The notes under the pieces: model-generated
What the model saw: the letters and a program-made list of their open reading frames with translations, nothing else
Database searches by the model: none
What the model was told of the DNA's origin: nothing
Position numbers and translations under genes: made by a program
In this document: one piece after another, positions 22,945-63,157 of the stretch
Layout of the letters: every line of letters starts with the position of its first letter
How positions within the stretch are numbered: the stretch's first letter is position 1
IMG/VR virus record: IMGVR_UViG_3300020193_000003
Source: a virus
Direction: 5' to 3' (one strand)
Length of the DNA: 64,000 nucleotides

Positions 22945-25900
22945 ATGACCAACCAGCAAACCTCCGACGATCTGGACTACCTCTACAAGTCTCTCAACGG
23001 TCAGATAAACGTCGATGAGGCGCAGGGCATAGTCGAGGCGTTCGTCGCCGGCGTCGGCAACAAGGACGCCGTGGGTGACATCTGTCTGCCGGGGTGCTTT
23101 ACCTCGTCCCTCAAGCGCAGGAAGCCTCGCGTCGTCTGGGGCCACGACTGGAACTCCCCGATCGGCAAGGTGCTCGAGATCTACGAGGTCGGGCCCAACG
23201 ACCCGCGCCTGCCGGCAAAGATGCGCAAGGCGGGCATAGGTGGCCTCTACGCAAGGGTGCAGTTCAACCTCAAGGCGGAGAAGGGCAGGGAGGCTTTCGC
23301 CAACGTGTCGTTCTTCGGCATGGAGCAGGAGTGGTCCATCGGGTACAAGACCCTGGACGCGGTGTTCGACCCGGTGCAGACCGCCAACCTCCTGAAGGAA
23401 GTGGAGCTCTACGAGGTGTCGCCGGTCTTGCACGGAGCGAACCAGCTGACGGGGACGATATCCATCAAGGCGGACGAGGCCGAAACGCAGACCAAGGAGG
23501 GGCAGGAAAAGGCGGGCAAGCCCGTCTTGCGCGACCCCAAGGGCGGACTCACGGCGGCCGGTCGGGCCCACTTCAAGCGCACCGAGGGCGCAAATCTGAA
23601 ACCGGGCGTGATGGGCGCGGCCGACACGCCGGAGAAAATGCGCAGGAAGGGTTCCTTCCTCACCCGCTTCTTCACCAATCCGAGCGGTCCGATGAAGAAG
23701 CCGAACGGCAAGCCCTCGAGGCTTGCCCTTTCGGCCGCGGCGTGGGGCGAGCCGGTGCCGCAGAACGCGTCCGACGCATCCGCGTTGGCGGCGAAGGGTC
23801 GTCGCCTGCTCGAGAGGTACGAGAACTCGAAGAAGAACAAGAAGAAGGACGACGCAGACTCGGTGGAGAACAAGAACTATGTCGCGGCCATCTACTCCGC
23901 CACGAGCGCGCAGCAGAACGAGACGTTCGGCAGGGCATCCGAGCTGACCAGGGCGTTGGCCGCGAGGTTCGGCGGCCCCGTGAGACTGGTGACGGCCGAC
24001 AACGACATAGCGGTGTTCGAGATGGGCGCTGGCGCGTCGGTGGAGACGATGAGGGTCGCGTACCACTACGACGGCGACGAGTTCATGTTCGGCACGGCTC
24101 AGCAGGTGAAGCCCGAGACCGTCTACATCCCGATCAACCAGACGACATCCGGCCAGACGGTCGGCGGGGTCACGACGGGAATAACCCCGAACGTCGGGCA
24201 CCACGCAGGCCACGTCGGTCACGAGGGACACTGCTGTCCTTCCTGCGGAAACGGCGGCAACTGCGACGCATCGGTGGCGCTCACGCGGGGCGAGAGTCCG
24301 AGGATCGCCTTCATGAAACTGAAGTCGCTCGGCGACCAGCTCAACTTTGAGGTCGTGCCGGTCAACGGAGGTTTCCTCCTGAAGGGGTTCGGGTTCCTTT
24401 CCGTCGAGGCGCAGAACTTCGTCGTCAACAAGATAGAGCAGGGAATGAGCCGGAAGTTCGTGAACCCGACGGGGATGGCCATGCGCAGGGGTCTCGGCGT
24501 TCCGAACATAGGTGGTGCCGTGCGCGGTTTCAACGTCGACATGAACCCGTTCACCGCGAGGGACGCCGACCTGGACAAGCTGGTGCTCGAGGGCAACCCG
24601 CTCGTCAACATGGGCCGCGGAGTGCCGGACCCGACGCCGTTCGGGATCCCGGATGGGCCGCGCTTCGGTGATCCGAACATTCCGAGGGTTTCCGACAGAA
24701 TGAATCAAAGACGCCCGCTGATGATGCCGGCGGTGCCCGAGCCGACCGAGGTCCCGGAACCAGCCAAGGAACCAAAGCCGGTGACGGAACCGTCGCCGTT
24801 CGTGCCCAAGCCGAACAGGCCCCCGACCCCAGTTCCGCAACCGGAACCGGAGACGGAGCCGGTCGTGCCCGTTCCCGTGCCCGAGCCGGAGAGAGAGCCG
24901 GTCCCGGTGCGTCCGCAACCAATCAGGCCGACGGTGCCCGTGCGCCCCCTCGTTCCGACTGGCAGGAGGCGTATTCCAAAGAGGTTGGCGGAGGACTTGG
25001 CGCGAGCAGATTCGTTCGACCGCCCGAGCAGGCAGACGAGGCAGCGTCGCCTCAGGGACCAGGGAATCGACGAAATGCGGAGACTGATGCTCCTCGACGG
25101 ACCGGAAGCTGGAATGAGCAACCAGGACTCTCGCCCATTCGTCGGGCGGACGGACATCGAGTCCCGGGAACGGGAATTCTACGAATTGATGCTGGACGAA
25201 CGAAGGGCCGACGACGCACGCACGACTGGCGACACGAGCGTTCTGCGTCCCCGAATACTCGACGATATTTTGGAATATCTCGGAGACGAGAACGAAGACG
25301 ATCCGGATTACGTCCCGTCTGCCGATGAGATCGCCTCTTTGGCGCAGGAATTGGCAGAGGAGGCAGTCGAAAAATTCATAAACGAGGATTATTACGTTGG
25401 CGGCTCGTCCAGCAACCCTGTGTACAGGGGAAGGAACAACAGGGACCTGTGGCCCAGGCGCGACGAAATCTTCAGGAAATTCAGCGGAGGCGACGGGGAA
25501 GCCGGAATGAGCAGAGGCGGAGGCGGCCCCGACGAATTGGCCGACAGATTCCGTCAGGCTCGAGAGGAGAGAGAGCAGCCCGGCAGCAGAGGTCTTGACG
25601 ACGATACGTCGGCAATGTTTAGACAGGCTGAGGATTCTTTGCGCGGAAGTTTCCGTCCGAAGACCAACGAAGTTGATAGGTACGAGTACAGCGACCGAGA
25701 CAACATCAATGCCATGCGGTCGCAGGCCGAAATAATGAGGACGGACTACAACGACGAAGAAGCCGCCCAACTCTTTGAGCAGGCCGCGGACATCCTTGAA
25801 GATCGACTCGCAATGCCCAAGGACGGCGAAATCGTAGACGACGGTACCGAAGTGGAGCGCGAGCTGCTTGAGGCGGAGCGGATTGGGCTTGCGAACTTGT

Positions 25901-28900
25901 CGGCACGACGCGAGAAGATGCGGGATTCCGGGATGTCTCCGGATTATTCGGTCAGATCCCCGAGCTGGCGCGGTCAGGGTGAATTCTGGCTTGACACCTC
26001 GACGGGGAGAATCTTTTACAGGGACTCCACTGACTTCGAGGATGGGGACGGTTTTGACGGGGAATTCGTGGACATAGCGGGGGTGCAGTCGCAAGACGCC
26101 GATTGGATCCGCGAGAGTCTGCTCGCCAATTGGGACTCAATAGGTTTCAACGCCCGGGGCGACTTCGTCTACAGGGGCGTCGACTTCGGGCAGGCGATGG
26201 ATCCCAACGACCCGCCACCGCCGCTTGACAATCGCGGGGAGTTGATACCGAACCAGGAAGTGGTCATATTCAGCGCGGAGCAAATCGCCTCCAGGCCCAG
26301 GACCAGGGACGACGACATCGTCGACGGGGAGATCGTCGACGGGGATGCCGGAATGGCCGGTCCGAACAGGAACAGACGCCGTGGACGCGCCGTGAGAATC
26401 GATTCCGAAGAAACGCTCGAGGAAGTTTTCAGGAGAAGAAGGAACGGGGAAGACATCTCGGACATGATGGAGGACATTGACCTGCCGAATCCGGGAGACC
26501 GTGCCATCACGGACCCACCCCCGGGTGCGGACGCCGGAATGGCCGGTCGTGCCAGGACCAGGGAGGAGAACGCGGACCTGGGGAGAAGGATCTGGTTGGC
26601 AAGGACCCACGACAAGCTGTCGTTGGACGAGGCCGGCCGCCGCTTCAGGACGTCCAGGCAGAGGGCCAGGCAGCTTGAGCTACTCCATCACAAGTACCTG
26701 CGCAACCTTGGTCAGTACCACGCAAACAGGCTCGCACGGGCGATGGTCGACGACCCGATGACCGGTCTCACCGACGCCGAGGCGGATCTGCTCAGGCGAC
26801 GTCTCGACGGCGAATTGCTCGAGGAGGCGGCTGAGCGACTGAGGACGGACAGGTTCGCCATCAGGCGCATGGAGCAGCTCGCCCTCGCCAAGCTGAGGAA
26901 CAGGATGATCGATGATGGTCCGTCGGGTGCGATGGCCCCCAGTCGTGGAGGCAGGGCGGTGGACGCCGCCCGCCCAAAAGCACCAGGGGCCGAAAGGCCC
27001 GGAAGCCGAAGAAGAAGAAACGCAGTTGATCCGAGTTTCATAGAGATCCTCGACTCGCTGAAGGAGTCGGGCGAGGACGGCCTGACCAACGCGCAGAGAG
27101 TGCGACTGGCGGCCCTGATGCGATTCCGTCGTGTGATCAGCAACAAGATAGACCAGTTGATGGTCGGCGGGTCGCGTCGTCGCCGCCTGTCCGCCGTCGC
27201 CCCGGAGGTCGACCAGCTCAACAAGTCCATGCGCGGCCCGTTCTCTTCGCTGGCCGAGGCCGCGAAGATAACCACGGGCAGTCCGAGGGATTTTGTCTCC
27301 TCCGCCATCAAGGTTGCGAACGGTGAGCAGGATCCGCTCGACATTGACGGACCGATAAACGTCCAGGTATTCGAGGCATTGCGGGCCACGAACGACGATT
27401 TCGCCGCTGTCGCCAGGAGCCTGGGCATGGACGAGGAGGTCGTTCGCCTGCGAGCCGCGGCCCACACGTTGAGGTTGCTCGCCTCGGCGATGCCAGTCAG
27501 GATGGGGGTGCACAGGCGCCTGGAGAGCAGCGGTGACGCTCTGACGTCGATTGAGCGTTACATCGTTAGGGCGTGGCTGAACGGAGCATCGGACCTTGAC
27601 ATTGCCGAGAGGATGGGAGACGGATTCGACGCGGCGCGCGTCGGCGCCACGAAGGTGACGGCGCTCACGAAGCTTCGGGTAGACGTGAACTCACCGGAGA
27701 TGCGCAGCAGGGTGGTCGACGGGAGGATCTTCTACGACGAGTTCGGTCTGTTCGTCGAGCTGACCGACGACGCCGGGGTCACTACCTACAACAGGATCGG
27801 CGACGGGCCGATGAGCATGATGGACGACGACGCATCCGGGGGTATGTCGGCCCCCAAGCGCAGGGTCGTGTTTGCGGACTTCGGCGACGGGGGCAGGGAA
27901 TACGTGGTCACGAGGACAGTCCAGAGGGACAGGGCGAACCCGAGCATGGAGTCAGTGATGATGATGCCGGTAAGGGGCGACGACCAGGCGACGGTGTCTA
28001 CGCTCATCGGCAGGCAGCTGTTGGGCGACGATCGCGGGGCGAACCTCGAGTTCCCGGCGATTCTTTTGAAATCGGACGGAAGGATCACTGGCGTGGCCGA
28101 CCTCTCCGGCAACGCGGTTCGCTTCTACGGGTCGCGCGTCATCAACGGATCCACCCCTCGCGTCGCCGAGAGGGTTGACGCGATAAGGGCCAACGACTCG
28201 GCGGCAAGGACGAAGATGGACCAGGACGTCGAGGGCGCCGAGAGGAGGCTGAGGGGTCTCATGAGGGCGCTGGACCACCTGATTAGCACGGGCGACTGGA
28301 TCGGAGGCGATGCGAACGTCACCGGGAGGGTCCCCGAATACGCGACCATGATGAGGTACGGACTCGACTCCGACGACGACGGGACGCCGATCACTCCGCG
28401 CAACAGGACCAAGGAGCAGTTTGAGCTGGACGAGGCGGAGTTCTTCCTGTCCAGGTACCCGAACGCTTCCGATGACAGGGTGGAGCAGCACGTCCAGCAA
28501 GCCACGTCGGACAGACTCGCCCAGGTGAGCAGGAAGGTCGATATCGCAAAGAAAGAGCTCGACAGGCTCCAGCACGTCCGGGACTCCAAGGAGGTCAGGC
28601 GCTCCCAGAACGTCGTTGACCTCGAGACGCTTGACGACGAGACGGCGAGGATGCTCGCCGACGAAACCAGATTCCTTGCGTCCATGTCCGGGCAGGATTA
28701 CGACGCCGCCGGCGTGTCGAAGGGCGCTGACGGTTTCGCTTACGTGGTCCACAAGGGACCGGACAGGCTCTCGGGCGGCGTGCTTGACCCTCGCATGTCG
28801 GCGGGCGTCGCGGGCCGCGCCGGGTCGGTGGCCGGGCAGGGCGACACGAGGGGGGCGAACAGGACCTACGTAGCGAGGTTCCTGCAGTCTGCGGAGGCGA

Positions 28901-31900
28901 AGTCCGACATGGTCAGGCACTCGTCCGACCTCGCCGCGAGGATCGCCCGAGGCGAGGCGGTCGTCACCGCACACCCGTCGATACGTGGGGCGTTGAGGGC
29001 GCAATCCCAGCTCCTGTCGAGGGCATTCGGCGAAGGCGGAGTGCTGAACATGGAGAACTTCGACGAGGCGCGCGTCGCCGCGATCGTCGCGGATGTCAAC
29101 AGGTTCGTCGACGCCCAGAAACGCGACCTCCAGCGCTACCAGAAGATAAGGGATTCGTTGACGAAGTTCGGCGGGAGGGACATGGATCAAATGCTGTCCG
29201 CCGAGTCGGACGCCACGCGTGCGGTCGGTTCCCTTAACTTCTACGGAAGGTACGCCGATTTTGACCTGCCCCGCGACATCGTCAGCTTCTCGCCGGGGTT
29301 CACGGACGGGCTCACGAGAAGGTGGACCCCCGTGGACGAAACGATGCTCGACCGGTGGGAGTTGACGGGCTCGCTGCGCGGCGGGGCGTTCTTGGCGGCG
29401 GGCAGGCTGGACGCGGAGATAGTCAGGGGCGGGCTGCTCGGACCGAGCGGCGAGTCGCAGATAATAGCCCCACTCAAGCCCCTGATCGGAATTTCGACGC
29501 CGGTCAGGATCACGGACGACGTTGCGCCGAGCGACCCGAAGTTCCTGGTGCAGAGCCTCGGCCCGGCCCTGATGGCTAGGGCCATAAAGATGCACAAGCG
29601 CGACGGGTTCGTGGACATTGAGACCGTCCTGACGGACCCGGACTTGGCACCGCAGGGTTACGTCGCGCGAACCGGGGACGCCGAGGCCGGCATGGCCGCG
29701 CTGGAACCGCGCAGGCCGATCCTTGACGAGCGCGGAAGGCTCGACCCGGTTTTGACGCGCGACGAAGCATACCTGGACGACAGGGAGGAGAGGGGTCTGC
29801 CAGATGGACCGATGCAGAGACTCCTCGTCCCGCAGACTCCGTCCACGTTCATCGAGGCCCCTCCTGGTGACCTCACGCCCGAGACGAGGAGGGCTCCGTG
29901 GGCGATCGGGTACACGAGTTCGGAGGCGGACATCGCCATTGGACTGGACGAGGATTACCCGGAACGACTGGTTCACGTCGTGGCACCCTCGGCGTTGCCG
30001 CCAGACAACGCGAAATTCCCCGTGAGCGAGTCGGGCCCGCATCTGATGCTCGACCGGGAACCGCTGGACTTCCTGGTTCACGTGTTGAACGACATCAACC
30101 GCATGACGGTGGAGGAGAGGGAAGCCTCGGAGAGATCGCTCTCGGACAGGGGCTTCGAGATCGAAAGATCGGAGTTCGACCCCCCGGACGATTTCACCCC
30201 GAGAGAACGTCACCCGACCTACCTGGTCGTCGACATCAGGGGCGAGCCGCAACTTCAGGGTCCCACCGGAACCGGGACCACGAGAATCATCAGGGTCAGG
30301 GAAATCCTGAGGTTCAGACTGTCAAGCCAGGCCGACGAATCCCAGCCCGGCGGAGGACCGTTCTGGAGGCGAATCGACCCCGAGGCGGTCGCGAGAGGGG
30401 AACCTGGGAGAACCACGACCGAAAGCTTGGGGTACATGGACTTCGTGATAGACGTCGACCCAACCTACGACGGAGACCTCCTTGACGGCGAGAGAGAGGT
30501 GAGGATAAAACCGGAGAGCATCATCGGGAGAATAGTCTCCGCCGAGGAGTTGTCCGTCAGCTCCCATGTGACGAGGCAGATCTACCAAGGGGACGGCGTT
30601 CGCTTCATGAGGTACCCGCGCCCCTACGGTCGCTCCGGCGGCGACGCAGAGGCAGGGATGGCACTCGCTCCCCGTACGGCCGATCTGGTCGCAAGGACGG
30701 AGAAGTACTTCCCGTCGGACGACAGGAACGACTGGCTGATCCCAGAGTCCGTCATGCCGGACAGGGAACAGGCGGAGCTCCTCGGCCTGCTCCGCGACGC
30801 GCTCGGCGGCAAGGGGCTGACGCTGGGAGGAGAGCAGAGGTGGCGGATGCTCCTGCTCAAGGCTGAGTCCCTCCGTCGCGTGCAAAGCCTGAGGGGCGAG
30901 CTGCCGCACGAAAGGGACGAGATCGGCGTCTCGATGTACGACACGTTCGCGGCCGACACCGACACGGGATACGGGCAGCTCATTCCGTTCGTGGAACCAG
31001 GGACGACGACGCACATTCGTTACGACAAGAGCGGGAACCCAGTCGAGTACATCCCGGTCAGGATCGGCAGGAGCATCGCCGACGCCGCAACGTTCGAGTA
31101 CCACCCCGCGTCTCAGGTCAAGTACGCACTCATTCTCTCTGGCAGGCAGCTTAGGACCTGGAACCACCCCGAGGGAACTGCTCCGGGGGTTTCGCGGCGA
31201 GTAGCGAGCTGGGACGACGAGGGAGTCGAGCTCGACGTCCTCAGCGAGGAGATCCGCTTCCAGGCCTCGCGCACGAGGCAGATGGACGAACTTCTCGGCT
31301 TCACCGGCGACTCTCCGCAGAAAATAATCTTCGCTCTCCGCCGAGCGGCCAGCGACAAATCACCCAGACTCAGGGACAGGTTCGTGTACGACCCCTACGG
31401 ATACGTCGTTCTGTCCGACGCGCCGTGGAGGGAGGAGGACAGCGTCGTCGCCCTGCGCAGGTCCGAGAACTTCGCCGACCTGCAGAGACTGATCGCCGGC
31501 ATAAAGAAGGACGAAAAGTCGGTCAAGGTGACGCAGGTCGTCGGCTACAAGCCCGGCTCAAAGACGAGACCGTCGCTGGTCGACCGGGTCATCCGCTCGC
31601 CCAGGGTGGTCAGCGGCGTGGTGGACGAGATCACGGGGGAGTTCGTGCTCGACGGCAACGGAACCCCGCACGTCGTCGGGTACCTGCCCGACGGATCACC
31701 GATAGCCGTCGAGATCTCCGACTTGGTATACGACCGCGTCTCGCCGAGGCGAGCCGACGACGAATTCTCGCCGTCGAGGAACCGCGCTCCAGGCGGGGAT
31801 GCGGAAGCGGGGATGTCCTCCCCAACGAAGTCCAACCTCTACAACTACATAAGAATGCGGCTGAGGGGCGATGGCGACGACCAGGACAGGGATTACATCG

Positions 31901-40116: not shown

Positions 40117-40128
40117 ACGAGCGAGTCA

Positions 40129-40332
40129 ATGAACGGTAGACCAAGCGGCGAGTACACCCGCGGGAACCGTGTTATGGGTTATGATAAACCTACACAAAAT
40201 AACGCAGTCAAATTGAAATATCACTGCATTGCGACGGGCGAGAAACGCCAGTTTCCATGCGGCAGTTGCGTCAACCACAAGGGTTGCCTAGCGACGACGA
40301 TGCAATACAAGGAGCGAAAACATGGAACCTGA
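40129..40332 (+). CDS. Small Cys-rich (zinc-ribbon-like) protein
   Basis: HCIATGEKRQFPCGSCVNHKGC; the true start may be the internal Met. Confidence 0.55.
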   Translation: MNGRPSGEYTRGNRVMGYDKPTQNNAVKLKYHCIATGEKRQFPCGSCVNHKGCLATTMQYKERKHGT

Positions 40333-49484: not shown

Positions 49485-49552
49485 GAAATATACGTCTATA
49501 ATTGTTTGATGATTGTCAAATCCCGTCGCCGGGAATAGAGGATAAAGGGCAG

Positions 49553-52500: not shown

Positions 52501-55500
52501 GACGGACGAGGTGCACAGACTCTACGGGGAACCGGTGCCGGGACCAAGAGCACTTCCCGATGGTGTTATCGGCCCGGGAGGCGGGGCACCCCCGCCACCT
52601 GGCGCGGGTGGGCCACCGGGCGGAGCACCGAGAGGACCGATGATCCCCCTCGGGCCAGGCTCGCCACCAAGGACGCCCCCTGATGGGGGAGGCGGCGCCA
52701 CTCCGCCCCCAGCCTCCCCCGGATCGCGTGGGACCGCCACCGGGCCGACGATTCCGACGGTGCCACGAGCCGACGACCCAGACATTCCCACTCCCGACGA
52801 TACGACTCCGCCCCCAGCCTCCCCGCGGTTGCGCGGAACCGCCACCAGGCCGACGATTCCGATGCGTCCGTCGGACGAAGGTCCAGAAGCTCCCGGCGAC
52901 GCCCCGGAGCCCGAGGCTCCATCGAGGGTCCGTGGCACGGGAGTCAGGAGACCGACCAGGCCGACGACCGACGACGATCTCGTAGAGCCGACGGTCAGAC
53001 CCGAAACCGACGCGGATCGCGTTTCGCCGGAAAGACGCAGAGCCGACGCGGACAGGGAAAGAAGGGTGCGCGAGCTGTTCGGCGACGAAGAAGATCCAGC
53101 CGAAAGAGAGCGTTCCGGGACGAGAACAACCGACTCCGCGGAGGAGACTTCGCCCGATCGCCCGAGAACGACGGCATCTGCCGCGAGGGACGAACTCAAC
53201 GCCGCTCGAAAGAGGGCGCGCGACAGGCGTTTCGCGGAGCGGGAGGAAGCGGACAAAAGGGCGGAAGAAGCATCCCGCAGGATGGCGGAAGCCAGGTATT
53301 ACGAGGGCGTCTACGGGGACGTCGAGCAAGCAGTGGAAGATGCAAAACGCAACATCCCGTCCGATAGTCGAATCAACCCTAGAGATCGCGAAAGGCGCGT
53401 TCGCACAATGGACGAACAAGTTGCGGCGAGGCGCAAGGCGCTTGATAAGGCATCGGCCGCGACCGATCCAAAAGAACGCAGGGGGCAGCAAATAGTCGCC
53501 GCCGCGCTAGAAGCGGAATTGATGTATAAAGCTGGGCAAATAGATTACAGAACCAACGAGCGCCGACAAGCGGACCTGTCGGTCCTGGCCGACCTAAACG
53601 GAACGCCACTCTACCGGGACGACCAAGGCATGTTCAAATTGGAAAGCAGCGTTCCGGAATGGCAGAGAACCGAGGGACCCGACTCGATCGACGATTCGGC
53701 CGAATCCGTCGCTTCTAGAACGGCTTTGGCCGAAAGAATGTTCGGAGAGAGCGAAGCCTCGGAACTCTTGGGCACTCGTTCTTCCGAGACCGACGGACCC
53801 ACCGCCGATTCGCAAGCGGACAGGTTGAGGCTGAACCAAATTCGCGAGGAACGAGTCAACGCCACGGCGCGCGTAGCGGACGCGGAAACTCGCCACGACG
53901 AAGCCCTCAGGAGGGCGAGGCGCACGGGATCCGATCCCGACAGGGGAGGGGACGGCGACCCGGCGGCGTGGGCGGATTACAGGGCGGCCTACGAAGAATT
54001 GAACGAGGCGGACGCCGAGAACGCCAGGCTGCTGCGCGAGTCCAGGGAGCTCGAGGATCGGATACCGAAGAGCGAGACACCGACGCCCGCCACGACCAGG
54101 GATCCCTCCAGGAGATCGTACGAGCGACCGGAAACTCCCGAAGGCATCATCGTGGAAGGCGAAACCCCGCAACGGCAGATACGAATGATCAACCAGACCA
54201 CGGGGGAAATAATTTACGTGGATCCGAGCAACGCTCGCATCATGGATGAAGTCAGGGCAGAGGGCTTCGCTCCGGACGTGAGGCAACCCACCGCTCCCGC
54301 CAGGAGACAGGCCAGTGGGCGAGAAAAACCGCGAACGAAACCCGCACGTGAGCCCGATTGGGTGAGACGCGAGCGGGCCCGACGTGATCGGGCGGGATTG
54401 GCCGACGATATTCCCGGATACGACGACGAGCCGGATGTGGGAATGGCGCCTCCGGTCAGGAGGGGATCGGATTCCGACGGGGTGAGGGAGTTCCTGGAGG
54501 AGGGCGACGGGGCCTTCATGACGCCCGAGCAGGCCCGCCTGCAAAGGGACGGAGCCGTCGAGCGCCGGGAGTCGGCCATCTCGCAGCGCGAGAGGTTGAT
54601 AAACGAGAGGGACGGGGTTGAGAACGGCGTCGTCGGACGCAACCTGACGGACGATCAGGCGCAGAGACGGGTTGAGGAGCTGAACCGCCAGATAGCCGAC
54701 CTGGAGAGAAGAATAGACGACCACGAGAGAACCGCGGAGTTGTTCTCGGAGCACGCACGGAAACTCGAGGAGGGAATCCCCATCAGGGGGAGACGAGGCG
54801 GCGACGCTGAAGCAGGGATGGCGCTTTACAGGCCGAAGAACGTCGTCACAACGACGAACGACCCACCGACTTCAATGAACCCGGGAACGATAACCTCGGA
54901 CGGAGGATTCCAGGCTTACACGTTTGATTTTGCGACTTACGAATTCGACGGGCCCGACGGCATGGAACGAATAATCTTCGAGGACCCGAATCTCGTCAAC
55001 ATGGACGATCCCTCGATTCGGGTCATCCCGAGAAATCCGTACGCGATCACCGGGACCGACGAGTTGAGCGAAGAGGGTCGGAGCTTGGCGCGCAGGTACC
55101 ATCTCGCAAAGGCCGGTTTGATGGAGAGGAACCGTCTCGCTGGCGAGAAGGACCAGTACGATGTTGACGGCTACGTCGATTCCCTGCTCTACAGGGCCTC
55201 GATGGGTGACCCGGAAGCCGAAGCGCTAATTGCTGAGTTGTCGGATCTTGGCGAACAAATTCGGGAAGAGGCGAGGGCACGGAGAATAGCGAAAGACCTA
55301 GATGACAGCTTCGGCGAAATAGCCCAGTCGGAGATAGACGGGTCCAAGGGTGCCGCGACGCTGAAGGCTCTGACGCCCGATAAATTGGCCCTGGTCCACG
55401 AGACGAAATACGAACCAAGAGTTCTCCCCGACGGCACCCTGGAGATCCAGCCGTTGGCCGATTTTCCGACGAACCCGCCTTCCGAAGGTCTCGACACGAT

Positions 55501-58500
55501 CGACGGGAAACCGACCTACCCGAACGTAAACTACCCGCGTCACACCGTGCACTTTGGGGTCGGCGGGTTGGCCGGTGGCCACGTTCAAAGACAGAGCCCC
55601 AAGGACATTGACCCGAACCAACGGGTGTGGGTGGTGGTGACCAATTTCGGTGAGGCCATGGATGCGAATCCCGGTTCCGTCGAAACGATGCGTCTGGAAG
55701 ACACGAGTCTCACCCCGAGAGCCGGGGAGGGACTGAGATTTCCCCCGGGGACCTTCCGGATCTTGGAACTCACGGGGGACAAGAAGGCGGATTTCGCCAC
55801 GATGAACGGGGCGATTCTGGAGGTCGGCGGAACCCCACTCCCGGCAGACATGGACTATTCAAGGTACGGCGGCTCGGCCAGGTCCCGGAGGATATCTCAA
55901 ATGGCCGCCGAGTTGGGTTTCCCCTCCGTTCTGGATGTCGACCATCCGAGCTCCCTGGGCCATCGGGGCTCAATGCGAAGGGGTAATTTCATCGATCGGC
56001 GCGAGGCTTTCGCAACGGCGTTGCCGATCGAAGAATCATCGCTCTCGATGCTCAGCGACAACAGTCTCGAGCGAATCAGCACCTCCACGCACACGTACGG
56101 CGGCGGGGTCGTTCGCTACGTGAATGATTCGGACACGTACATCGAGCTTTTCCCGCCGGACCTACAGGAGCGAATCGACCAGGGGCTCATCAGCAAGCGC
56201 GACGCACGCAGAGAACTAACTGGCAGAGTTGAAGCCCGCAGGGCGGCACGGGCTCAATCCGCCGACGGGCCGAGCGCCGGCATGGCGAGGGGGACGAGCG
56301 AGGAAATCTTCATGCGACCCGACGGAACCTTCGACATCGGCCCGGACACGGGTGGGCGCTCCGCCCTGCGACCGAGTCGCATTGACGAAGAAGTTGTGAA
56401 CCAGGCAGTGATCCAGGCTAGGCAGGAGGTGGTCAGCGAGGTTCTCGACAACCCGTTCGCAACCGACCAAGACTTCGGGCGCGCCTCGCAGGCGATCGAC
56501 CTGATGGAGGATGCGATCGGCGCGGACGCTGCCGAGCGGCTCAGGAACAGACTCGCGAGGGCGCGGGCAAGGCGAGACAGAAACAGTCCCCAAACGATGC
56601 CGGAAATTAGACCGTACTTGATCAGGCCCCCGCAATACGGCGACGACTCGTTCGGGAACCGCAACCGCGTCGGCGACATGGCGCGCGCCATGTCGCGCCC
56701 CGACGACCCGAGGAATCCGCCTCGCACCGCCACGGCGAGATTGGCGCACATGGACACCGCCAACTCGTCCGTCGCAAGGGACATAACTTACGACCCGCAA
56801 AACGGAGACCTCACGGTCACCTACAACGACGACAGGGTCGTCACGTTCACCGACGTGCCGTACGAGCGCGTGCGCAAGGCGGGTTTCGACGACCTGCCGG
56901 ACGACCTGATCAGCGAACTGGAGAACGAACAGAACCAGATGCGCAGCAGGCCAATCGGCAGGATGTCCGACGGCAACCGGGCCCGCAGGAACGTCTCGGG
57001 CCCGAGACGATTGCTCTCCGAGGGGAACTTCCGGTCCAACGAACGACGGCAACCACCCGGCGCTGAGCAGTTCGACGATGGGCCGTCGGCCGGCATGGGC
57101 CGAACGTACGAAACCCTGGTCGGCACGCACGCCAACGTCGTCTCCAGAAAACGAGACGAGTTGGCGAAGGCGCAACAAACGCTTGACGGGATAGGCACCC
57201 GCAGGGACAAGGGGTTGGTGACCGAGGACGAGGCCAAGGCGGTCGCCTCTGCGTTCGCGGACCTGTTCTCCGGGGACATGAGGGTGCAGAGCAATTTTGA
57301 GGGGAGACTGAGGACGGAGTTGCTCAGCGACGGTCGCACCATGGTCAGGTTGGATGCGCAAGTGAACTGGGAGGAGATGGTGCAGGTCCAGGACCTGACG
57401 AGCATCCCCATAACCATGCAAATAAAGTCCGCCGACGGAAAAACGATTTACGGGTACGCCTCAAGGAGGCTGGAGATAGGCGAGGACGGAATCACCGTCC
57501 ATCACGGTTCCCTCACCATCTCGCCGGAGTACCGCGGCAAGGGGATAGCCAGCGAGTTCAACGCAAGGAACGAGAACCTCTACAAAGCCCTCGGGGTCAG
57601 GAGCATAACGACCAGCGGATCCTCCTCCTCGGTTACGAGCACAAACAACCCGTTCGAGGACCAGGTGATCGGAACCGGCGCGACCCACTGGGCCCGCAAC
57701 GGGTTCACCTGGAGGGACGATGACGCGAAACAAAAATTCATCGGAATCATAGACTCGGCATTGTCTAGGAAGCCGGGAATCTTCTCGGACGAGGAGAGGC
57801 AGAGGATATCCTCCCTGTACAAGAGGGGCCGATCCGGGGACTTTCAGACGTCGGCGACCGCGGAAGAGCTGGTTGATTTCGAGGCCGCCGACAGATTGTT
57901 CGCCGAGGAAGGCGCGATCATCGGGTACAGGAGGGACCTGGCGCCCGCCGAGATTGCTGCTCCGAAACCGTCGAGACTCACCAGGATCGCCGACAGGCTC
58001 GGCCGGCGCTCCCGAAACCGGCGCGACGAAACGGACGGTCCGTCGTTCGAGCCGCCTCCCTGGGACCCGGATGCCGAGCTGGAGGAGGCGCTGGATGACA
58101 GGCGGGCCCGCCGAATCGCGGAGTCGCTGGCGGCGGCCGAGCTCCCGGATTTCGTCAGGGATTGGGACCCGGAAGCAGGGATGGCGGAGACGAGGAGGGC
58201 GAGATCGGCAGCGAAGAGACGAAACGCGGCCATGGCGAGGAACGTTGGCCCGGCACTCAAAGGGGACACGGATGTCAAAGAGAAAAGCGTGGACCCGGCG
58301 CCGCCGCCGTTCTCGCGAAGGGACTCGCAGAAATTGACCCAGGTGACTGCGGATTCCGACGCGCTCAATGCGTCGATCGTCCAGCAGAGAAAGGCCCTCG
58401 TCGACAAGTACGCACCGGGCAGGCACGGAGAGCCAGTTGAGTCCTATGCGGACGAGCTCATGGACAGCATGGGCGTCGCGCGCGAGACGGGCCTGAAGGG

Positions 58501-60097
58501 CAAGCCCATGACGTTCGGCGAGCAACTGGACCAAGCCATGGACTTCTTCCTCAGGACAGCCGAACAGGACGGCAAAGAAGATCAGGTCGCCGACCCGAGG
58601 GACAGTCTTGAGGACAGGGATGTCTCCTTCATGAAGGGGGCGGCCAAACTGGCGGCCCTCGAGCTGGCCCAGACCGAGGAGGGAAGGAAGAAGGTCAGGG
58701 AGGCGATGGCGACGGCGATTCTCGATACTTTGGCTGGGGCCGAGCCAGCACTGGAGAAGGACCCGTCACTGAGGCGGGCCACGACCATCAGAATCCACAT
58801 GAACGACAGGTCGGATCTGAGAAAGTTCGCCGGGTACGCAAGTTCGGAGATCGATGGGGATGGCAGGGTGGGGCTCGTCGTATCGCTGGTTCCCAACGTG
58901 CTGGTCTTTGACTCGAGCTTGTTCGTAGGATCCGACGAAGGCCCGTTGTCCAAGGGGCAGGGTCTGTCCGAAGTTTTCCGCTTCGCCGGCTCCGACGATT
59001 ATCACTTCGGGCTCGGCGTGCACGAGTACGCGCATTTGGAGCACTACAGGTCGTGGTACGCGAGCCTCGGGTTGCGGGTCGGACGGGACGCGCCACCGTT
59101 GTCGGCGCAGCCGAAAGGTCGCCTCGGCGACAGCCTGATCGGGGCGGAAATATCCCGGAAACACAACTTTCCGATGGATGCAACCTGGGACGAGGTTCGC
59201 GAGACGTTCGCCAAGACACTCGGCAACCAATGGGATGCGCGGCAATTGGCCGACCAACACAACATCATGCATATCTCTCATGCCCCCAGCCTCGACGATT
59301 CCATCTACGAGATAGTTGAACAAATTTCCCATGGAAGCAAAAAGGAACAATTACGACAAATAAGGGGAGCCTGGTCCAAAGACATTGGCGGACAAATAAC
59401 GGATGTTTTGACCCCGGCTGGAGCAACCAACTACAGGGCGCAGGATTTCGGCGCCATGCTCAGCGCGCTGACGAGCTACGAAAGAAGCCTGGAGAATCCG
59501 TTTTTGGGCATGAATCCGGAGAACCTGACAGAGGAGCAAAAGCGGTGGGTAATCGAAAGGATAAAAATGCCGGAAAAAATTGGTAGCAAATTCCTCGCGT
59601 TGGAAGGCAGGGATGGGTGGGACGACGAAGTGAAGTTCCTTGACGCCCCGGCGGTGAGAAAGATCGTGAACGATGTGCTTGAGGGGCAAACGCCGGAAGA
59701 GTTCCTGGCCGAGCACAAGAGGATCATGGACCAGGTGCTTGGTTACGACTCCGGGTTCGCCTCGACGCTTGGCGTGCCGACCGACGAGGTCATGCGGGTT
59801 CTGGGCAGGTCGTCGCTGTACGGGCAGACGAACATCATGGAGGCCGTCGCCGAGGCCCGAGTGGTGACCCTCTATGCGGAGCGTTTCCGCGAGTCGCTCA
59901 GCATCAAGCAGCTTGAGCAAGTCGAGGAGATGAGGGAAATGCTGGAACGGGTGCTCCCGGACCCGTCCGGCGGCGTGGCGGTTCGGAACCTGACGCCGGA
60001 GGCGAAGGAACATTTTGCTAGACTGGCGAGGATGTTGGGCAAACTTCCGATACTGAAACTCGACCCTGAAGCACTCAAAGCGGCACTCAGGGCGTAG
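49553..60097 (+). CDS. Giant polyvalent protein (~3514 aa): two zincins, Pro-rich linker, coiled coils, KTSC, GNAT
   Basis: Probable ATG at 49553; HELNH (51581); HEYAH (59021) with YGQTNIMEAVAE; KTSC-like SSVARDITYD..L.V.Y...F.DVP; GNAT ISPEYRGKGIA...WARNGF; six AGM-type linkers. Confidence 0.88.
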   Translation: MSPTPFRIPFNAKIVARHGTTSVYALRDGRLAFVDHTKNRTFFDGSRDVGTGTYGSGHNSAWADSRIVAVASKGGSASFAQTKALKPKQSRVPQEAPDQPGEEIPDEAFSRLMPMIPKEFLDWAASYEIGDPLPPMMPGYGGRTLCSKSINDTSYSQDDFGVDQVVERVLADMGLPDINPALAFAPEIETKGLPRMEQKGILGREIRDMARNIVDSILTARGLWKDELNKIRCGSGPNANRFTDIFGTGCDVPGADMAGNIVGAIRAGVDVPGPVDEVAGKIEGARESVADAADGIDVPGGKSSLGERLRMALTRVRGGHTPHYVADMPGDIDPAAGMSDVLNRRSDKRGGFLFVRSLVSRNKRRERAKKAVGRFESAEKMAREAFATREYRDWEQDFTLRKGRLPNQGEKLNWLAEHIGWKGQFRDAAGKLVTDEHGNPVGSFGGLADTAVVDGVVTDMTHFEAMVEQIVRDPRFVEGGNFDRLSEAQKRRRREEVARNIYEYGLQTLFAMKNAGGPEKIEQIQPDGSRILVDNPEHKKRFAEVIPTHFRVIHPTDPSNFRGLADAAVVTGVNSFEPGFDDEIDFVPLLGTDRRMTAGRPLTAGVQRHGRVAGSLPLYAHENQTRGGEIPFVASISLNPVWFTDRQTQKDKLKAFGGDHLGMDISREAFWAHTADHELNHVDDFAQRLGNKLGYWGELGGGREEWMRRLSQQTYTRTPTGGYWSNVIDLRKDAASYTFLGQQIAELDAKLAAATTTYERQKAIWFFYMQNMRFNERTMSDFARWMNRSGAGFTPGKRLSKAEQAAMLTEIFENLRARGYSEEHGVPTFSFWEDMMDTPLGYWDPATGKFEFPMDPRTGRLNPYPLNVMNLQPKWTGRRTPANVPFSENVATFGIELDPARFGPGRDPYGQARLDNSVSNLLHGYIGGTYAGEDDYEFAAELRTQLNKQGALADVREFLADPARNIHQLTEADFMTLVARYVGTDEVHRLYGEPVPGPRALPDGVIGPGGGAPPPPGAGGPPGGAPRGPMIPLGPGSPPRTPPDGGGGATPPPASPGSRGTATGPTIPTVPRADDPDIPTPDDTTPPPASPRLRGTATRPTIPMRPSDEGPEAPGDAPEPEAPSRVRGTGVRRPTRPTTDDDLVEPTVRPETDADRVSPERRRADADRERRVRELFGDEEDPAERERSGTRTTDSAEETSPDRPRTTASAARDELNAARKRARDRRFAEREEADKRAEEASRRMAEARYYEGVYGDVEQAVEDAKRNIPSDSRINPRDRERRVRTMDEQVAARRKALDKASAATDPKERRGQQIVAAALEAELMYKAGQIDYRTNERRQADLSVLADLNGTPLYRDDQGMFKLESSVPEWQRTEGPDSIDDSAESVASRTALAERMFGESEASELLGTRSSETDGPTADSQADRLRLNQIREERVNATARVADAETRHDEALRRARRTGSDPDRGGDGDPAAWADYRAAYEELNEADAENARLLRESRELEDRIPKSETPTPATTRDPSRRSYERPETPEGIIVEGETPQRQIRMINQTTGEIIYVDPSNARIMDEVRAEGFAPDVRQPTAPARRQASGREKPRTKPAREPDWVRRERARRDRAGLADDIPGYDDEPDVGMAPPVRRGSDSDGVREFLEEGDGAFMTPEQARLQRDGAVERRESAISQRERLINERDGVENGVVGRNLTDDQAQRRVEELNRQIADLERRIDDHERTAELFSEHARKLEEGIPIRGRRGGDAEAGMALYRPKNVVTTTNDPPTSMNPGTITSDGGFQAYTFDFATYEFDGPDGMERIIFEDPNLVNMDDPSIRVIPRNPYAITGTDELSEEGRSLARRYHLAKAGLMERNRLAGEKDQYDVDGYVDSLLYRASMGDPEAEALIAELSDLGEQIREEARARRIAKDLDDSFGEIAQSEIDGSKGAATLKALTPDKLALVHETKYEPRVLPDGTLEIQPLADFPTNPPSEGLDTIDGKPTYPNVNYPRHTVHFGVGGLAGGHVQRQSPKDIDPNQRVWVVVTNFGEAMDANPGSVETMRLEDTSLTPRAGEGLRFPPGTFRILELTGDKKADFATMNGAILEVGGTPLPADMDYSRYGGSARSRRISQMAAELGFPSVLDVDHPSSLGHRGSMRRGNFIDRREAFATALPIEESSLSMLSDNSLERISTSTHTYGGGVVRYVNDSDTYIELFPPDLQERIDQGLISKRDARRELTGRVEARRAARAQSADGPSAGMARGTSEEIFMRPDGTFDIGPDTGGRSALRPSRIDEEVVNQAVIQARQEVVSEVLDNPFATDQDFGRASQAIDLMEDAIGADAAERLRNRLARARARRDRNSPQTMPEIRPYLIRPPQYGDDSFGNRNRVGDMARAMSRPDDPRNPPRTATARLAHMDTANSSVARDITYDPQNGDLTVTYNDDRVVTFTDVPYERVRKAGFDDLPDDLISELENEQNQMRSRPIGRMSDGNRARRNVSGPRRLLSEGNFRSNERRQPPGAEQFDDGPSAGMGRTYETLVGTHANVVSRKRDELAKAQQTLDGIGTRRDKGLVTEDEAKAVASAFADLFSGDMRVQSNFEGRLRTELLSDGRTMVRLDAQVNWEEMVQVQDLTSIPITMQIKSADGKTIYGYASRRLEIGEDGITVHHGSLTISPEYRGKGIASEFNARNENLYKALGVRSITTSGSSSSVTSTNNPFEDQVIGTGATHWARNGFTWRDDDAKQKFIGIIDSALSRKPGIFSDEERQRISSLYKRGRSGDFQTSATAEELVDFEAADRLFAEEGAIIGYRRDLAPAEIAAPKPSRLTRIADRLGRRSRNRRDETDGPSFEPPPWDPDAELEEALDDRRARRIAESLAAAELPDFVRDWDPEAGMAETRRARSAAKRRNAAMARNVGPALKGDTDVKEKSVDPAPPPFSRRDSQKLTQVTADSDALNASIVQQRKALVDKYAPGRHGEPVESYADELMDSMGVARETGLKGKPMTFGEQLDQAMDFFLRTAEQDGKEDQVADPRDSLEDRDVSFMKGAAKLAALELAQTEEGRKKVREAMATAILDTLAGAEPALEKDPSLRRATTIRIHMNDRSDLRKFAGYASSEIDGDGRVGLVVSLVPNVLVFDSSLFVGSDEGPLSKGQGLSEVFRFAGSDDYHFGLGVHEYAHLEHYRSWYASLGLRVGRDAPPLSAQPKGRLGDSLIGAEISRKHNFPMDATWDEVRETFAKTLGNQWDARQLADQHNIMHISHAPSLDDSIYEIVEQISHGSKKEQLRQIRGAWSKDIGGQITDVLTPAGATNYRAQDFGAMLSALTSYERSLENPFLGMNPENLTEEQKRWVIERIKMPEKIGSKFLALEGRDGWDDEVKFLDAPAVRKIVNDVLEGQTPEEFLAEHKRIMDQVLGYDSGFASTLGVPTDEVMRVLGRSSLYGQTNIMEAVAEARVVTLYAERFRESLSIKQLEQVEEMREMLERVLPDPSGGVAVRNLTPEAKEHFARLARMLGKLPILKLDPEALKAALRA

Positions 60098-60109
60098 GGG
60101 GGTGGCACC

Positions 60110-60406: not shown

Positions 60407-63157
60407 ATGACTCGTAGAAAGATAGGTTTTGGGCGCAGGGGTCGCGACTCGTTCGTCGACGACAAGACCGACGTCGCCCTGTCGTCCGTGACGCAGCTGG
60501 CGGAGACCTTGAGGACGAAGGTCATGCGACCCATCGGCGCCGGGCTCCTCCCCCCGCCCCACCTGGTGAGGAACGCCGACTCGGACCCCTACATCTACGA
60601 GGGGATCCCGTGGATCAACAGGGGCCGCGGGATAATCGACCCGACGCCAGGCAACGTGCAACCACTCAACAGAAGGCTGAGAAGGGAGGCGCAGGCAAAC
60701 CTCGGAACCCCGGCGCGAATCGTCGCGATGCGACCAAGTCCCATGGTCACCATGAGCCACGCGGACGGGCCCGTGGCGGCCATGGTCGATCCGAGAATTC
60801 TGTCTCGCCCAGAGAACATCATCCCGATCGACGAATTCTCGGGGCCGATGCAGGAGATTGAAACCCGCGTCGACGCGATTCTCGGGCCCAAACCGGCGAC
60901 GCTCAAGGAGGCGACGGACAACCTCAAGAAATTGGAGAACATCGTCAATTCGGGGGTCGCCAACGGCAACAACTTCCTGCTTGACCTCCCGTATTTTGCG
61001 GCGCAAATGCAACCAGGGTTGGCTCGGGTCAGCCCCAGGTTTGCCGGGCCGGCCACGCCGATGTCCAGTTACGACTACGGGTTGTACTACGGGATTGCGG
61101 TCAACCTGATCGATTATCCCGAGGCCTTCAGGGATGTTCATTTGACGATCACGACGATCAACAATCCCGACGAGCAAACCCCAGAAACAATTGGGGCGAA
61201 CACGGCGTCCCCGCCGTCCTACTTCAAGATTTCCCCGAAATCCGAGTCCAGGAGGGAAGTTCCGGGAGGAACGCCCATGATGCTCCTGAGTCAGGTCAGG
61301 GCGGACACCGGTGTCAACGACATGTCGGGAGCCAAAATTCACCCAACCGGAGGGAAAGCCACCACCGGCGCGCGCCTGCCGCAAATCGTTTCCTTTCCCA
61401 CATACAAGAGCGACGGCCAGAAGGCAACCAAATTGATGTACGGCCAACAAGCCATCCACGAACTTGAAATTCCGGAAGATTACATTGAGAAATTGGAGCA
61501 AAATCTGGCTTTTTGGGAAAAGGTCCTTGCGGCGACGGGGGTGGCGCGACAATCGCTCATCGACTCCACGGTCTCGTCCGTGGCGCTGGGTTATTTGCAG
61601 GAAATGCAAAACCTGCAAGGGAAAATATCGCAACTCAAAGACATGACGTCCCAAACGCCCCATCCGAACGCCCTGCAGTCGGTCCGGGCGCTGGAACAGA
61701 GAATGTCGGAACTCTACTCCGAGTCCCAAAAAGCGGTCGCGATGGTGACGGCGATGCACGAAATGGGCCACGTGCTCGACTATGTGGGCGAGTACAGAAG
61801 CTCCCCGGACTATTTGAACGCAATCGCCCAGACGTCCAGTGGCTTGAACAGCCAGTACGAGATGGATCGCGACTTGGGCGTCGCCCAAGCAATTGCACAG
61901 GGTTTGGACCACCCCATAAAGGCGGACCTAGCGGAAAATCTGTCAAGGAAGTTCGTCAAGGAAAAACTCCTGCAAATGATTGGGATCATATCCAGGAGGA
62001 AATCATTGCCGCAGGTGCGGGCGATGGCGCAGGTCGTCGGAGACGGGCTCATGGCGATGGATGCCTCCCTGAAGGGCATGCTCCGCAAGCGGGCTTCCCC
62101 GGCCGACACCGAATCCGACGTCAAAATTGTCACTCGCGTTTGGTACGACATCCTCGCCCGCGAAGTGGGCGACATCAACAGTAGAATTATGCCGGGAACG
62201 CTGATCGCGCCGCTTGTCAACTCGCAAGTTATTGAGCCCAGGCTGGTGTCCGATCCAGCGAAATTGACGAAGATGGCCGAACAGGCCATAAGCCAGATCA
62301 GGAAAATAGGGGAGGACAGCATCGCCGCGTTCGCCGACCCCGGGGCCAGAGAGCAGTACGACTTCTACGTTGAATCCATAGATGCCCTCATCAAGGCGGC
62401 GGAGGAAAGAATCAGTCTCTTTCCTCGTCCCCAACAACGTGCGATCGCACTGGCGGTGACGGCGATAGCGGCCCACAACAGCTACCTGGAAGGGTTCAAA
62501 GCCTTCATGCTCAACACGAGCCAGGAGATGAATGATCTAGCGCAGGAAGAACAAGCTCTCGCGTATCTAGCCCCCTGGTTCGGGAACAACGTTACCCAGG
62601 AGGACATGGACCAGGCAGTCCTCAACAACGGCAGGAAGATCATGACCGATTTGTTGACCGTCAACCCCGCGATGGTCCGGGAGTTCATGGAGATCTACGG
62701 ACGCAACGAAGGCAAACCGTGGTTTGACGGCGCCGGAGCGTTTGATGCGACCGAGTACCTGAAGGACATCCTGGGGGGTGGGCCAAACAACCTGAAGGGC
62801 ATAACTTTTGCCGAGCTGGTGATGGTGATAAACCAATGGCACGGAACCCAAGGAACCAACGGTTGGAAGAATCTCACCGACAAGGAGATAGGGCTCATTC
62901 GGTCCGCCGTTGACAAACTCACCGAATACGGCGGTCCGGCGGATTACGATTTCGTGATTCCTTTGCCAAAGTTCCAAATGTCAACCAACAAGGAAACCTA
63001 CGCCGAGCTGCATCCGATGATCCTGATGAGAATGGAGCGAATGTTGCAAAGGCTCACCGCCGAGGAGAGGCGAGCGGTGGAGCGTCTGTACGAAGAGATG
63101 ATCGCAAGGGCCAGAGCCGTCATAAACCGCACCAACCAGGGAGGCACAACGCCATGA
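60407..63157 (+). CDS. Zincin-like metallopeptidase-containing protein with shared N-terminal motif
   Basis: RNADSDPYIYEGIPWINRGRGIIDPTPG; DGPVAAM linker; HEMGH (61757) and TNKETYAE. Confidence 0.8.
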   Translation: MTRRKIGFGRRGRDSFVDDKTDVALSSVTQLAETLRTKVMRPIGAGLLPPPHLVRNADSDPYIYEGIPWINRGRGIIDPTPGNVQPLNRRLRREAQANLGTPARIVAMRPSPMVTMSHADGPVAAMVDPRILSRPENIIPIDEFSGPMQEIETRVDAILGPKPATLKEATDNLKKLENIVNSGVANGNNFLLDLPYFAAQMQPGLARVSPRFAGPATPMSSYDYGLYYGIAVNLIDYPEAFRDVHLTITTINNPDEQTPETIGANTASPPSYFKISPKSESRREVPGGTPMMLLSQVRADTGVNDMSGAKIHPTGGKATTGARLPQIVSFPTYKSDGQKATKLMYGQQAIHELEIPEDYIEKLEQNLAFWEKVLAATGVARQSLIDSTVSSVALGYLQEMQNLQGKISQLKDMTSQTPHPNALQSVRALEQRMSELYSESQKAVAMVTAMHEMGHVLDYVGEYRSSPDYLNAIAQTSSGLNSQYEMDRDLGVAQAIAQGLDHPIKADLAENLSRKFVKEKLLQMIGIISRRKSLPQVRAMAQVVGDGLMAMDASLKGMLRKRASPADTESDVKIVTRVWYDILAREVGDINSRIMPGTLIAPLVNSQVIEPRLVSDPAKLTKMAEQAISQIRKIGEDSIAAFADPGAREQYDFYVESIDALIKAAEERISLFPRPQQRAIALAVTAIAAHNSYLEGFKAFMLNTSQEMNDLAQEEQALAYLAPWFGNNVTQEDMDQAVLNNGRKIMTDLLTVNPAMVREFMEIYGRNEGKPWFDGAGAFDATEYLKDILGGGPNNLKGITFAELVMVINQWHGTQGTNGWKNLTDKEIGLIRSAVDKLTEYGGPADYDFVIPLPKFQMSTNKETYAELHPMILMRMERMLQRLTAEERRAVERLYEEMIARARAVINRTNQGGTTP

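Follow-up and report, generated by a model that had tools for sequence, protein, structure and literature searches.

Candidate cargo polyproteins of an uncultured myovirus and the lineage-variable, methionine-anchored linker that punctuates them

Polyvalent proteins of phages (Iyer, Burroughs, Anand, de Souza and Aravind 2017) are predicted to be delivered together with the DNA, and self-processing by zincin domains has been predicted for them with no cleavage site defined (PMC5512222); the same work notes that P1 DdrB is cut and that N4 packages its virion RNA polymerase without cutting it (PMC5512222). Here we describe a stretch of 64,000 nucleotides (the window) from the IMG/VR virus record IMGVR_UViG_3300020193_000003, in which four open reading frames (ORFs A, B, C and D) of the head region share a short recurrent peptide linker anchored on a methionine. 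The window is part of a 142-kb contig from an uncultured myovirus, and the 46 kb downstream of it are known through the relatives G002 and G003. Similar to polyvalent proteins, the products are giant and multidomain, are encoded beside head genes (portal and MuF) and carry HExxH modules among unrelated domains, and the system fits that kind. It differs in that an explicit, repeated and lineage-variable Met-anchored linker bounds every module, in that few modules match the conflict domains defining the polyvalent set, and in that one polyprotein is fused behind an S78 protease, whereas that set reports assemblin-like peptidases only at C-termini.

Motifs of prohead proteases have been described for T4 gp21 (L/I-x-E), phiKZ gp175 and SPN3US gp245 (A-x-E) (PMC10052503, PMC7411985, PMC9026906). 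In these phages one short motif marks many cuts in packaged and ejected proteins, much as we propose here, and N-terminal address peptides are removed at that same motif. However, their proteases are of T4 type (S80/U9) with Glu at P1, and their substrates are mostly separate genes with one to few sites, whereas the present locus has an S78 head protease, a Met-centred motif with no fixed Glu across lineages, and a capsid site that differs from it. Microbacterium phages of cluster EK and phage Burro possess virion genes encoding more than 4,400 aa that are 'likely processed' (PMC7302621); our phage resembles them in being actinophage-like, and their 13-kb genes give a virion-associated, apparently processed product. 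Nevertheless, they are small phages with one giant gene, as opposed to 7-9 in close relatives of the window, tblastn with D and modules A13-A15 detected no sequence similarity to them, and no linker code has been described for them. Polyproteins of RNA viruses and retroviruses share the overall logic of one product, embedded protease(s), a consensus site at each joint and protease-site co-evolution, but here the host of the logic is a dsDNA tailed phage, the cargo is accessory rather than a replication or structural core, and there is no homology. Finally, MuF polymorphic toxins join an N-terminal MuF to a C-terminal toxin, whereas in the window MuF is fused to the portal and not to cargo. The concept is thus known, and the explicit, co-evolving, lineage-variable Met-anchored code and its scale are new; the initial annotation, which knew of no described dsDNA-phage polyprotein system with so regular a cleavage code, put the novelty too high in view of the predicted zincin self-processing of polyvalent proteins (PMC5512222) and of the regular motifs of prohead proteases (PMC10052503, PMC7411985).

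We propose that the linker is the endoproteolytic site of virion-associated polyvalent polyproteins and that it is read by a co-evolving phage protease, most likely the putative zincin encoded by ORF D, a reading to which we assign a probability of about one half. In this model, the giant ORFs behind the portal gene would be chains of independently folding modules joined by short exposed linkers, and a phage endopeptidase co-evolving with the linkers would cut at or beside the Met and free the modules, either during assembly or after ejection, with four HExxH-bearing modules among the products. The enzyme would most likely be a zincin-type metallopeptidase of the system, above all the stand-alone protein D (HExGH...E), and a hydrophobic Met would suit the S1' pocket of such enzymes. 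We infer cleavage, the enzyme, the scissile bond, capsid packaging and delivery. In the motifs below, a slash stands at the known or putative joint.

The linker and its distribution in the window

The linker, D-[GAP]-[ES]-A-G-M-[ASG], occurs in frame in ORFs A, B, C and D in 22 strong and 5 weak copies (Table 1). A position-specific scoring matrix (PSSM) was built from the core copies, and matches above 18 bits, of which there were 22 in A, B and C, were taken as strong. About 28 copies had been placed in these four ORFs by the initial annotation at positions agreeing with ours to within a few codons; 27 are counted here, since the AQAGA candidate near 37645, which lacks a Met and is missing from relatives, was dropped. 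EAGM was observed 13 times against 0.19 expected, [ES]AGM 15 times against 0.36, and AGM 20 times against 2.6, and shuffled proteins yielded 0.12 PSSM matches above 10 bits, with a highest score of 14.4 bits. A six-frame PSSM scan of the whole 64 kb returned no match above 10 bits outside ORFs A-D in their own frame; whether the motif is confined to these genes had been posed as a check by the initial annotation.

Third codon positions of the linkers vary (GAA/GAG, GCN, GGN), which bears on the possibility that the Met codons are internal in-frame starts and that the motif is a ribosome-binding site plus ATG giving nested products. The invariance of the Met and the A, S or G that follows it do recall ordinary N-termini, and pairing of the 18 nt upstream with the anti-Shine-Dalgarno (anti-SD) sequence amounts to -6.0 kcal/mol at window linkers, compared with -4.2 at other internal ATGs and -6.9 at true starts. 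However, linker ATGs of G003, which has the same EAGM motif, showed no difference from other ATGs (p = 0.46), the difference in G006 was not significant, and the TASM and PVGAM motifs of other lineages are not purine-rich. Moreover, an internal start cannot terminate the upstream product, and conservation is found at the level of the peptide. The SD-likeness in the window follows from the coding of Gly, Glu and Asp, and internal initiation appears to us highly improbable. Since synonymous positions vary and SD-likeness is inconsistent, selection acts on the peptide, in line with what had been proposed.

Linkers bound 6-15 modules per ORF in the proteins of 5106, 2362 and 3531 aa, each 62-1418 aa in length, and the Pfam matches Sigma70_r4, HTH, RNase_T, KTSC and DUF4314 each lie inside a single module. 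The copies had been described as lying in flexible linkers between domains, and this agrees with their flanks, which are poor in hydrophobic residues (0.214 versus 0.274, with 0 of 2000 random draws as low), and with an AlphaFold model of A4150-4900, in which all four linker sites have a predicted local distance difference test (pLDDT) score below 40 and lie between better-folded blocks, this model being weak (mean pLDDT 51, six sequences). With regard to conflict-system effector domains (ADP-ribosyltransferases, nucleases, methylases, anti-restriction), Pfam and PHROG gave weak or generic matches only, and most modules are without recognisable function. The roughly 30 effectors suggested originally are therefore better called linker-bounded modules, some of which may be effectors. 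Identical copies of the ORF A-D proteins recur on 4-5 independent contigs (ENA and JGI samples), and for this reason the ORFs are not assembly artefacts. Cysteine is scarce in ORFs A-D, with 10 Cys in 11,915 residues (0.08%) versus 0.32% in the other window proteins.

Lineage-specific codes and exchange of modules

Relatives were represented by 16 giant S78-headed metagenomic proteins (P0003-P0018) and by 204 related loci from a scan of viral contigs. The linker takes the form DxEAGM in the window, G002 and G003; DGPTASM (followed by S) in P0008; GDSGAM or DTGRM in G004, P0010 and P0011; GPVG[ARS]M in P0012-17; PSGSM in G012; and xGMRSxR in G006 and P0018. Met is the sole residue invariant across lineages, and small residues flank it; the boundaries of the modules are likewise shared, and the joints are orthologous. 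The joint /M[SA]GLTNR is kept in 11 relatives, with an upstream side that goes by lineage (DGPIAG, DGPSAG, DGPTGS, GTDSGA, GVTGA etc.). Over each relative's whole record, the lineage motif is restricted to the giant head-region proteins, apart from tape-measure matches in G004 and G012. Many sites have been recoded in concert at the peptide level, which argues for one changing recogniser, and we regard this concerted recoding as the strongest evidence for a specific factor reading the motif.

Such a factor might come from the host, in which case a host protease would cut the linkers after ejection and lineage differences would reflect different hosts. Lineage motifs could indeed follow host specificity, and cargo and tape measure both enter the host. 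However, we know of no bacterial endopeptidase with such a site, and the system has five proteases of its own; we accordingly give a host enzyme very little credence.

The prediction that modules are swapped exactly at the motif is borne out by the relatives. When window proteins were compared with them by BLAST, 43% of high-scoring segment pair (HSP) ends fell within 15 aa of a linker site, versus 8% for random positions. The window and G002 have module A12 (4185-4386), which is absent exactly from linker to linker in G003, G004 and L005 and located elsewhere in P0005; the 160-aa module B1534-1693 occupies a different position in G004, where its identity is 71% amid neighbours of about 38%. 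An alternative is that the linker is left uncut and acts as a short linear motif or flexible joint for docking (to the capsid interior, a chaperone or the ejection channel), or as a joint favouring recombination, for modules do shuffle there and about 13 of the 18 motif bases are fixed by amino-acid constraint and could act as microhomology. However, the invariant Met and the concerted recoding of dozens of sites are left unexplained by a passive joint. Third positions are free to vary, and there is therefore no gene-conversion signature. The motif also closes the D and B leaders and stands ahead of each HExxH module, as is typical of propeptide junctions. An uncut linker thus seems to us improbable. 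The original view of polyproteins cut by a site-specific protease remains the best explanation of concerted recoding, cassette insertions and deletions, and low-confidence linkers, with probable cleavage by a candidate enzyme.

In relatives, cargo ORFs directly follow the portal-MuF gene and precede the capsid gene. G002, G003 and G004 (loci L106-L122) have 7-9 giant genes from portal to capsid, up to 6466 aa in G004 and roughly 45% of the genome, and the sum for the giant genes of this interval in G002 and G003 is roughly 20,000 codons. G005-type relatives possess the same portal, protease and capsid protein but lack linkers and D, and their cargo genes are far smaller.

The head protease and protein D as candidate enzymes

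The protease implied by the initial annotation is the head protease S78, encoded at the start of ORF A, which would cut the linkers inside the procapsid in the manner of T4 gp21 or phiKZ gp175, with Met at P1 and a small P1' residue. An intact S78 domain does head ORF A, repeated linkers occur only in lineages with S78 fused to long cargo, and GANM is conserved in the capsid protein around residue 121. Proteases of the assemblin fold take a small P1' residue (HK97 K/S; herpesvirus assemblin and 80alpha A/S), a preference that fits M/[SAG]. The HK97 capsid, for its part, is cleaved at K/SLGS. It is also established that prohead proteases cut many head proteins at one motif (PMC10052503, PMC7411985).

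However, alignment and tree indicate that the S78 domain does not track linker class or linker presence. Mean column identity is 73%, with His67, Ser131 and His163 invariant in 16 aligned relatives, and this conservation extends over all linker classes and linker-less relatives. The S78 domains of L080 and L085 are 72-74% identical over the aligned domain (78-81% over the longer tblastn match, residues 11-418) despite the lack of linkers, and linker-less G005-type phages encode an unfused 560-aa protease with the same conserved S78. In the capsid protein, found in five related records, a delta domain of ~110 residues ends in EFK/SL; this site and GANM are identical in all lineages, linker-less ones included, and neither follows the code. 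Likewise, the protease N-terminus carries [FY]K/[SA] in all lineages, and the Met-linker motif is absent from both the capsid maturation site and the protease's own N-terminal site in every one of them. Because EFK/SL and [FY]K/[SA] are kept in every lineage, the specificity of the head protease looks fixed, HK97-like and unlike the linker.

HK97-like [FY]K/[SA]L(G) sequences are found at residues 12-19 of A (YLYKSLNG, 22978-23001), in B (GEKSLGP, 42226-42246), in the A2 leader and at capsid residue ~110 (G002-G006); kept with or without Met-linkers, they probably represent the true S78 site. Otherwise unrelated giant proteins share another leader element, a segment of about 45 aa (NPFTARDADLD..[VL]LEG...N.GRG.PDPTP) located in A, in B (42271-42372) and in D (60563-60652), with a variant near 38650-38720 (A2), and near the N-termini of relatives' giant proteins. 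Possible roles are that of a docking or capsid-address element or of a calcium-type DxDxD loop.

Tape measures provide a further distinction between the candidates. In the G004 tape measure, the two best non-head matches of the record to the lineage PSSM lie ten residues apart near the N-terminus (13.7 bits, shuffle p 0.014; 11.9 bits, p 0.026), the next best in the record scoring 5.2. For the G012 tape measure the highest score belongs to NLSGAM, residue 57 (10.5 bits, p 0.058), and linker-less lineages show no motif in this place. The tape measure lies outside the capsid, and a lineage motif in it speaks against an S78 confined to the capsid; the head protease is in our view an unlikely reader of the linker.

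Protein D begins with a 125-residue leader that is strongly conserved, disordered in an AlphaFold2 model (pLDDT <40), and closed by the linker type of its lineage (ADGPVAAM, SDGVSGRM or IEGM-RSRR). Among 12 homologues, HExGH, E863 and E867 are invariant, and D diverges quickly, with identities of 49%, 27% and 20%. All 6 linker-bearing records tested contain it and none of the 7 linker-less ones does, 3 of the latter being at least 87% complete. All four HExxH modules (B2192, C694, C3174 and D451) start at a linker. Because S78 is nearly invariant, the capsid site differs, D co-occurs with linkers and tape measures of some lineages carry the lineage motif, we favour a zincin over S78 as the putative linker protease. 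In L024 (IMGVR_UViG_3300020204_000176), of a lineage without repeated linkers, the ORF at 14448 encodes 1206 aa, of which the C-terminal half is homologous to the C2894-3531 HExxH module and which has a single DGPASM ~60 residues before HEGAH.

Several observations weigh against this proposal. D is a candidate zincin from its invariant HExGH and distant Glu residues alone: Pfam searches on the 12 homologues at E values up to 1 gave nothing meaningful, and the model of D (mean pLDDT 60) matched only transporters and helical bundles in Foldseek against the PDB and in wide VIA-align. Linker-bearing lineages cluster in the S78 tree, and D is clade-restricted; because of this, the association of D, linkers and protease fusion may amount to a single origin. 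ORF A carries the most linkers and S78, with no HExxH, and the DEPMAAM of the window's own tape measure scores 3.2 bits with the general PSSM and is not significant in its own lineage. Finally, capsid packaging of the putative cut products is proposed from gene position and the S78 fusion only. The comparison of the D model with anthrax lethal factor (Z 6.8) is within noise, and a complex prediction of S78, D(290-916) and a 36-aa linker peptide scored 0.00, which has no bearing either way.

A search for independent contrasts for D came up empty: among 1.84 billion, its family counts no more than 31 representatives, each of which belongs to this clade or matches just the shared leader segment. 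Nothing in 50,697 GenBank phages matched D or modules A13-A15 in tblastn. Among cultured phages, the S78 domains closest to that of ORF A belong to actinophage proteases (~40% identity). A repeated linker is absent from gp27 of Gordonia phage DalanDe, a 'capsid maturation protease' of 1633 aa, and a PDB sequence search with ORF A residues 1-300 found no match.

The cutting of polyvalent proteins has been predicted since 2017 with sites not known, and here candidate sites can be read from sequence in several natural versions. If the proposal of a D-read linker is true, it would show how dozens of proteins can be packed and delivered by a phage in the form of a few chains, and it would bring a new metallopeptidase family of simple recognition site and a set of naturally orthogonal protease/site pairs. 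Tentatively, and with the odds somewhat against us, we picture a dsDNA myovirus clade with RNA-virus-style cargo polyproteins that would occupy up to ~45% of the genome in 7-9 giant proteins with ~50 or more swappable modules. In it, D would be a new zincin family that reads the Met code, tape measure included, protease and code would have been rewritten together at least six times to give orthogonal pairs, and cutting may follow ejection, turning one threaded chain into many enzymes in the host. The linker code also indicates where some 20,000 residues of unknown protein can be divided into single domains, as a basis for structural and functional work.

Feature coordinates and neighbouring genes

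Table 1. Features of the window. Residue numbers follow the ORF letter; scores in bits are from the PSSM.
Feature	Coordinates	Strand	Remarks
DEPMAAM/R, residues 58-65 of 1735-aa tape-measure-like protein (1648-6855, minus)	6661..6684	-	possible D-leader-subtype linker
Portal + MuF-like fusion, 739 aa	20639..22858	+	Pfam Phage_portal 8.6e-51, Phage_Mu_F 8.6e-11
ORF A, 5106 aa: S78 protease, DUF6321, shared leader segment, ~14 linker-bounded modules	22945..38265	+	
ORF A Peptidase_S78 (HK97-type prohead protease), residues 25-179	23017..23481	+	Pfam 1.4e-11; phrog_80 9.7e-28
ORF A DUF6321 domain, residues 196-267	23530..23745	+	Pfam 2.8e-27
Shared segment in ORF A	24532..24669	+	recurs in B, D and relatives' giant proteins
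Linker DGPEAGM/S (A724)	25099..25119	+	Met codon 25114; 23.5 bits
Linker GDGEAGM/S (A855)	25492..25512	+	Met codon 25507; 26.6 bits
Linker DGDAGM/A (A1137)	26338..26358	+	Met codon 26353; 20.1 bits
Linker GADAGM/A (A1199)	26524..26544	+	Met codon 26539; 22.0 bits
Weak linker DGPSGAM/A (A1330)	26917..26937	+	Met codon 26932; 9.5 bits; kept in G002 relative P0003
Linker DDASGGM/S (A1634)	27829..27849	+	Met codon 27844; 18.6 bits
Linker GDAEAGM/A (A2250)	29677..29697	+	Met codon 29692; 25.2 bits; BLAST HSP ends here
Linker GDAEAGM/A (A2572)	30643..30663	+	Met codon 30658; 25.6 bits
Linker GDAEAGM/S (A2957)	31798..31818	+	Met codon 31813; 26.4 bits
Linker DGPIAGM/A (A3877)	34558..34578	+	Met codon 34573; >18 bits; joint /M[SA]GLTNR
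Linker TDAEAGM/G (A4185), start of cassette module A12	35482..35502	+	Met codon 35497; >18 bits
Linker SGAEAAM/G (A4387), end of cassette module A12	36088..36108	+	Met codon 36103; >18 bits
Linker RDGEAGM/A (A4641)	36850..36870	+	Met codon 36865; >18 bits; joint /M..R.F[IV] kept across lineages
Linker GDANAGM/S (A4743)	37156..37176	+	Met codon 37171; 23.5 bits
ORF B, 2362 aa: leader with K/SLG + shared segment, 6 linkers, C-terminal HEFFH module	42193..49281	+	
Weak leader-type linker DFAVAAM/S (B88)	42439..42459	+	Met codon 42454; [DN]FA[VIL]AAM in G003 proteins
Linker SGPEAGM/A (B401)	43378..43398	+	Met codon 43393; 23.9 bits
Linker PDGEAGM/A (B802)	44581..44601	+	Met codon 44596; 25.5 bits
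Linker SDGEAGM/S (B1282)	46021..46041	+	Met codon 46036; 26.0 bits
Linker PDGEAGM/S (B1534), start of 160-aa module	46777..46797	+	Met codon 46792; >18 bits
Linker PDGEAAM/S (B1694), start of HEFFH module	47257..47277	+	Met codon 47272; >18 bits
HEFFH zincin-type motif (B2192)	48766..48780	+	kept in G003, G004
ORF C, 3531 aa (3514 from first ATG): 4 strong + 2 weak linkers, two HExxH modules	49502..60097	+	
Weak linker IDPAAGM/S (C355)	50549..50569	+	Met codon 50564; 6.8 bits; FDPAAGM in G003
HELNH motif (C694)	51581..51595	+	
Weak linker EPDVGM/A (C1648)	54428..54448	+	Met codon 54443
Linker GDAEAGM/A (C1773)	54803..54823	+	Met codon 54818; 25.6 bits
Linker DGPSAGM/A (C2261)	56267..56287	+	Met codon 56282; 20.9 bits
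Linker DGPSAGM/G (C2532)	57080..57100	+	Met codon 57095; 21.3 bits
Linker WDPEAGM/A (C2894), start of HEYAH module	58166..58186	+	Met codon 58181; 24.9 bits
HEYAH motif (C3174)	59021..59035	+	homologous module in L024
ORF D, 916 aa: leader 1-125, leader linker, helical body with HExGH (451-455), E863, E867	60407..63157	+	
Weak leader linker DGPVAAM/V (D126)	60767..60787	+	Met codon 60782; SDGVSGRM/A in G004, IEGM/RSRR in G006
HEMGH motif of D (D451)	61757..61771	+	motif + alignment

On the plus strand, the portal-MuF fusion is followed by ORF A, two proteins of ~600 aa, and ORFs B, C and D. The first of the two (38314-40116, 600 aa) is mostly made up of a tandem array of ~9 highly charged repeats (RPAGRPVDRLPGAGGPS...DTSNQRAEDARNQGK); it lacks Cys, matches no family and may be scaffold-like. 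The second (40322-42181, 619 aa) has a Cys-rich N-terminus (13 Cys), a poly-Lys run and long acidic stretches, and with a weak match to phrog_80 its two C-terminal repeats resemble the protease's DUF6321 region; homologues of this protein stand after the protease gene in all lineages, linker-less ones included.

The minus strand from 1 to 20384 encodes a large terminase, Erf/Rad52-like and PAPS-reductase-like proteins, a head-tail adaptor, neck and sheath proteins, and the tape-measure-like protein. The PAPS-reductase-like gene (13289-14521, minus strand; phrog_2302, 3e-71) adjoins ParB-like, RuvC-like, PD-(D/E)XK and Rad52/Erf genes, and this gene set, which is kept in all relatives, may represent a DNA-modification or recombination module.

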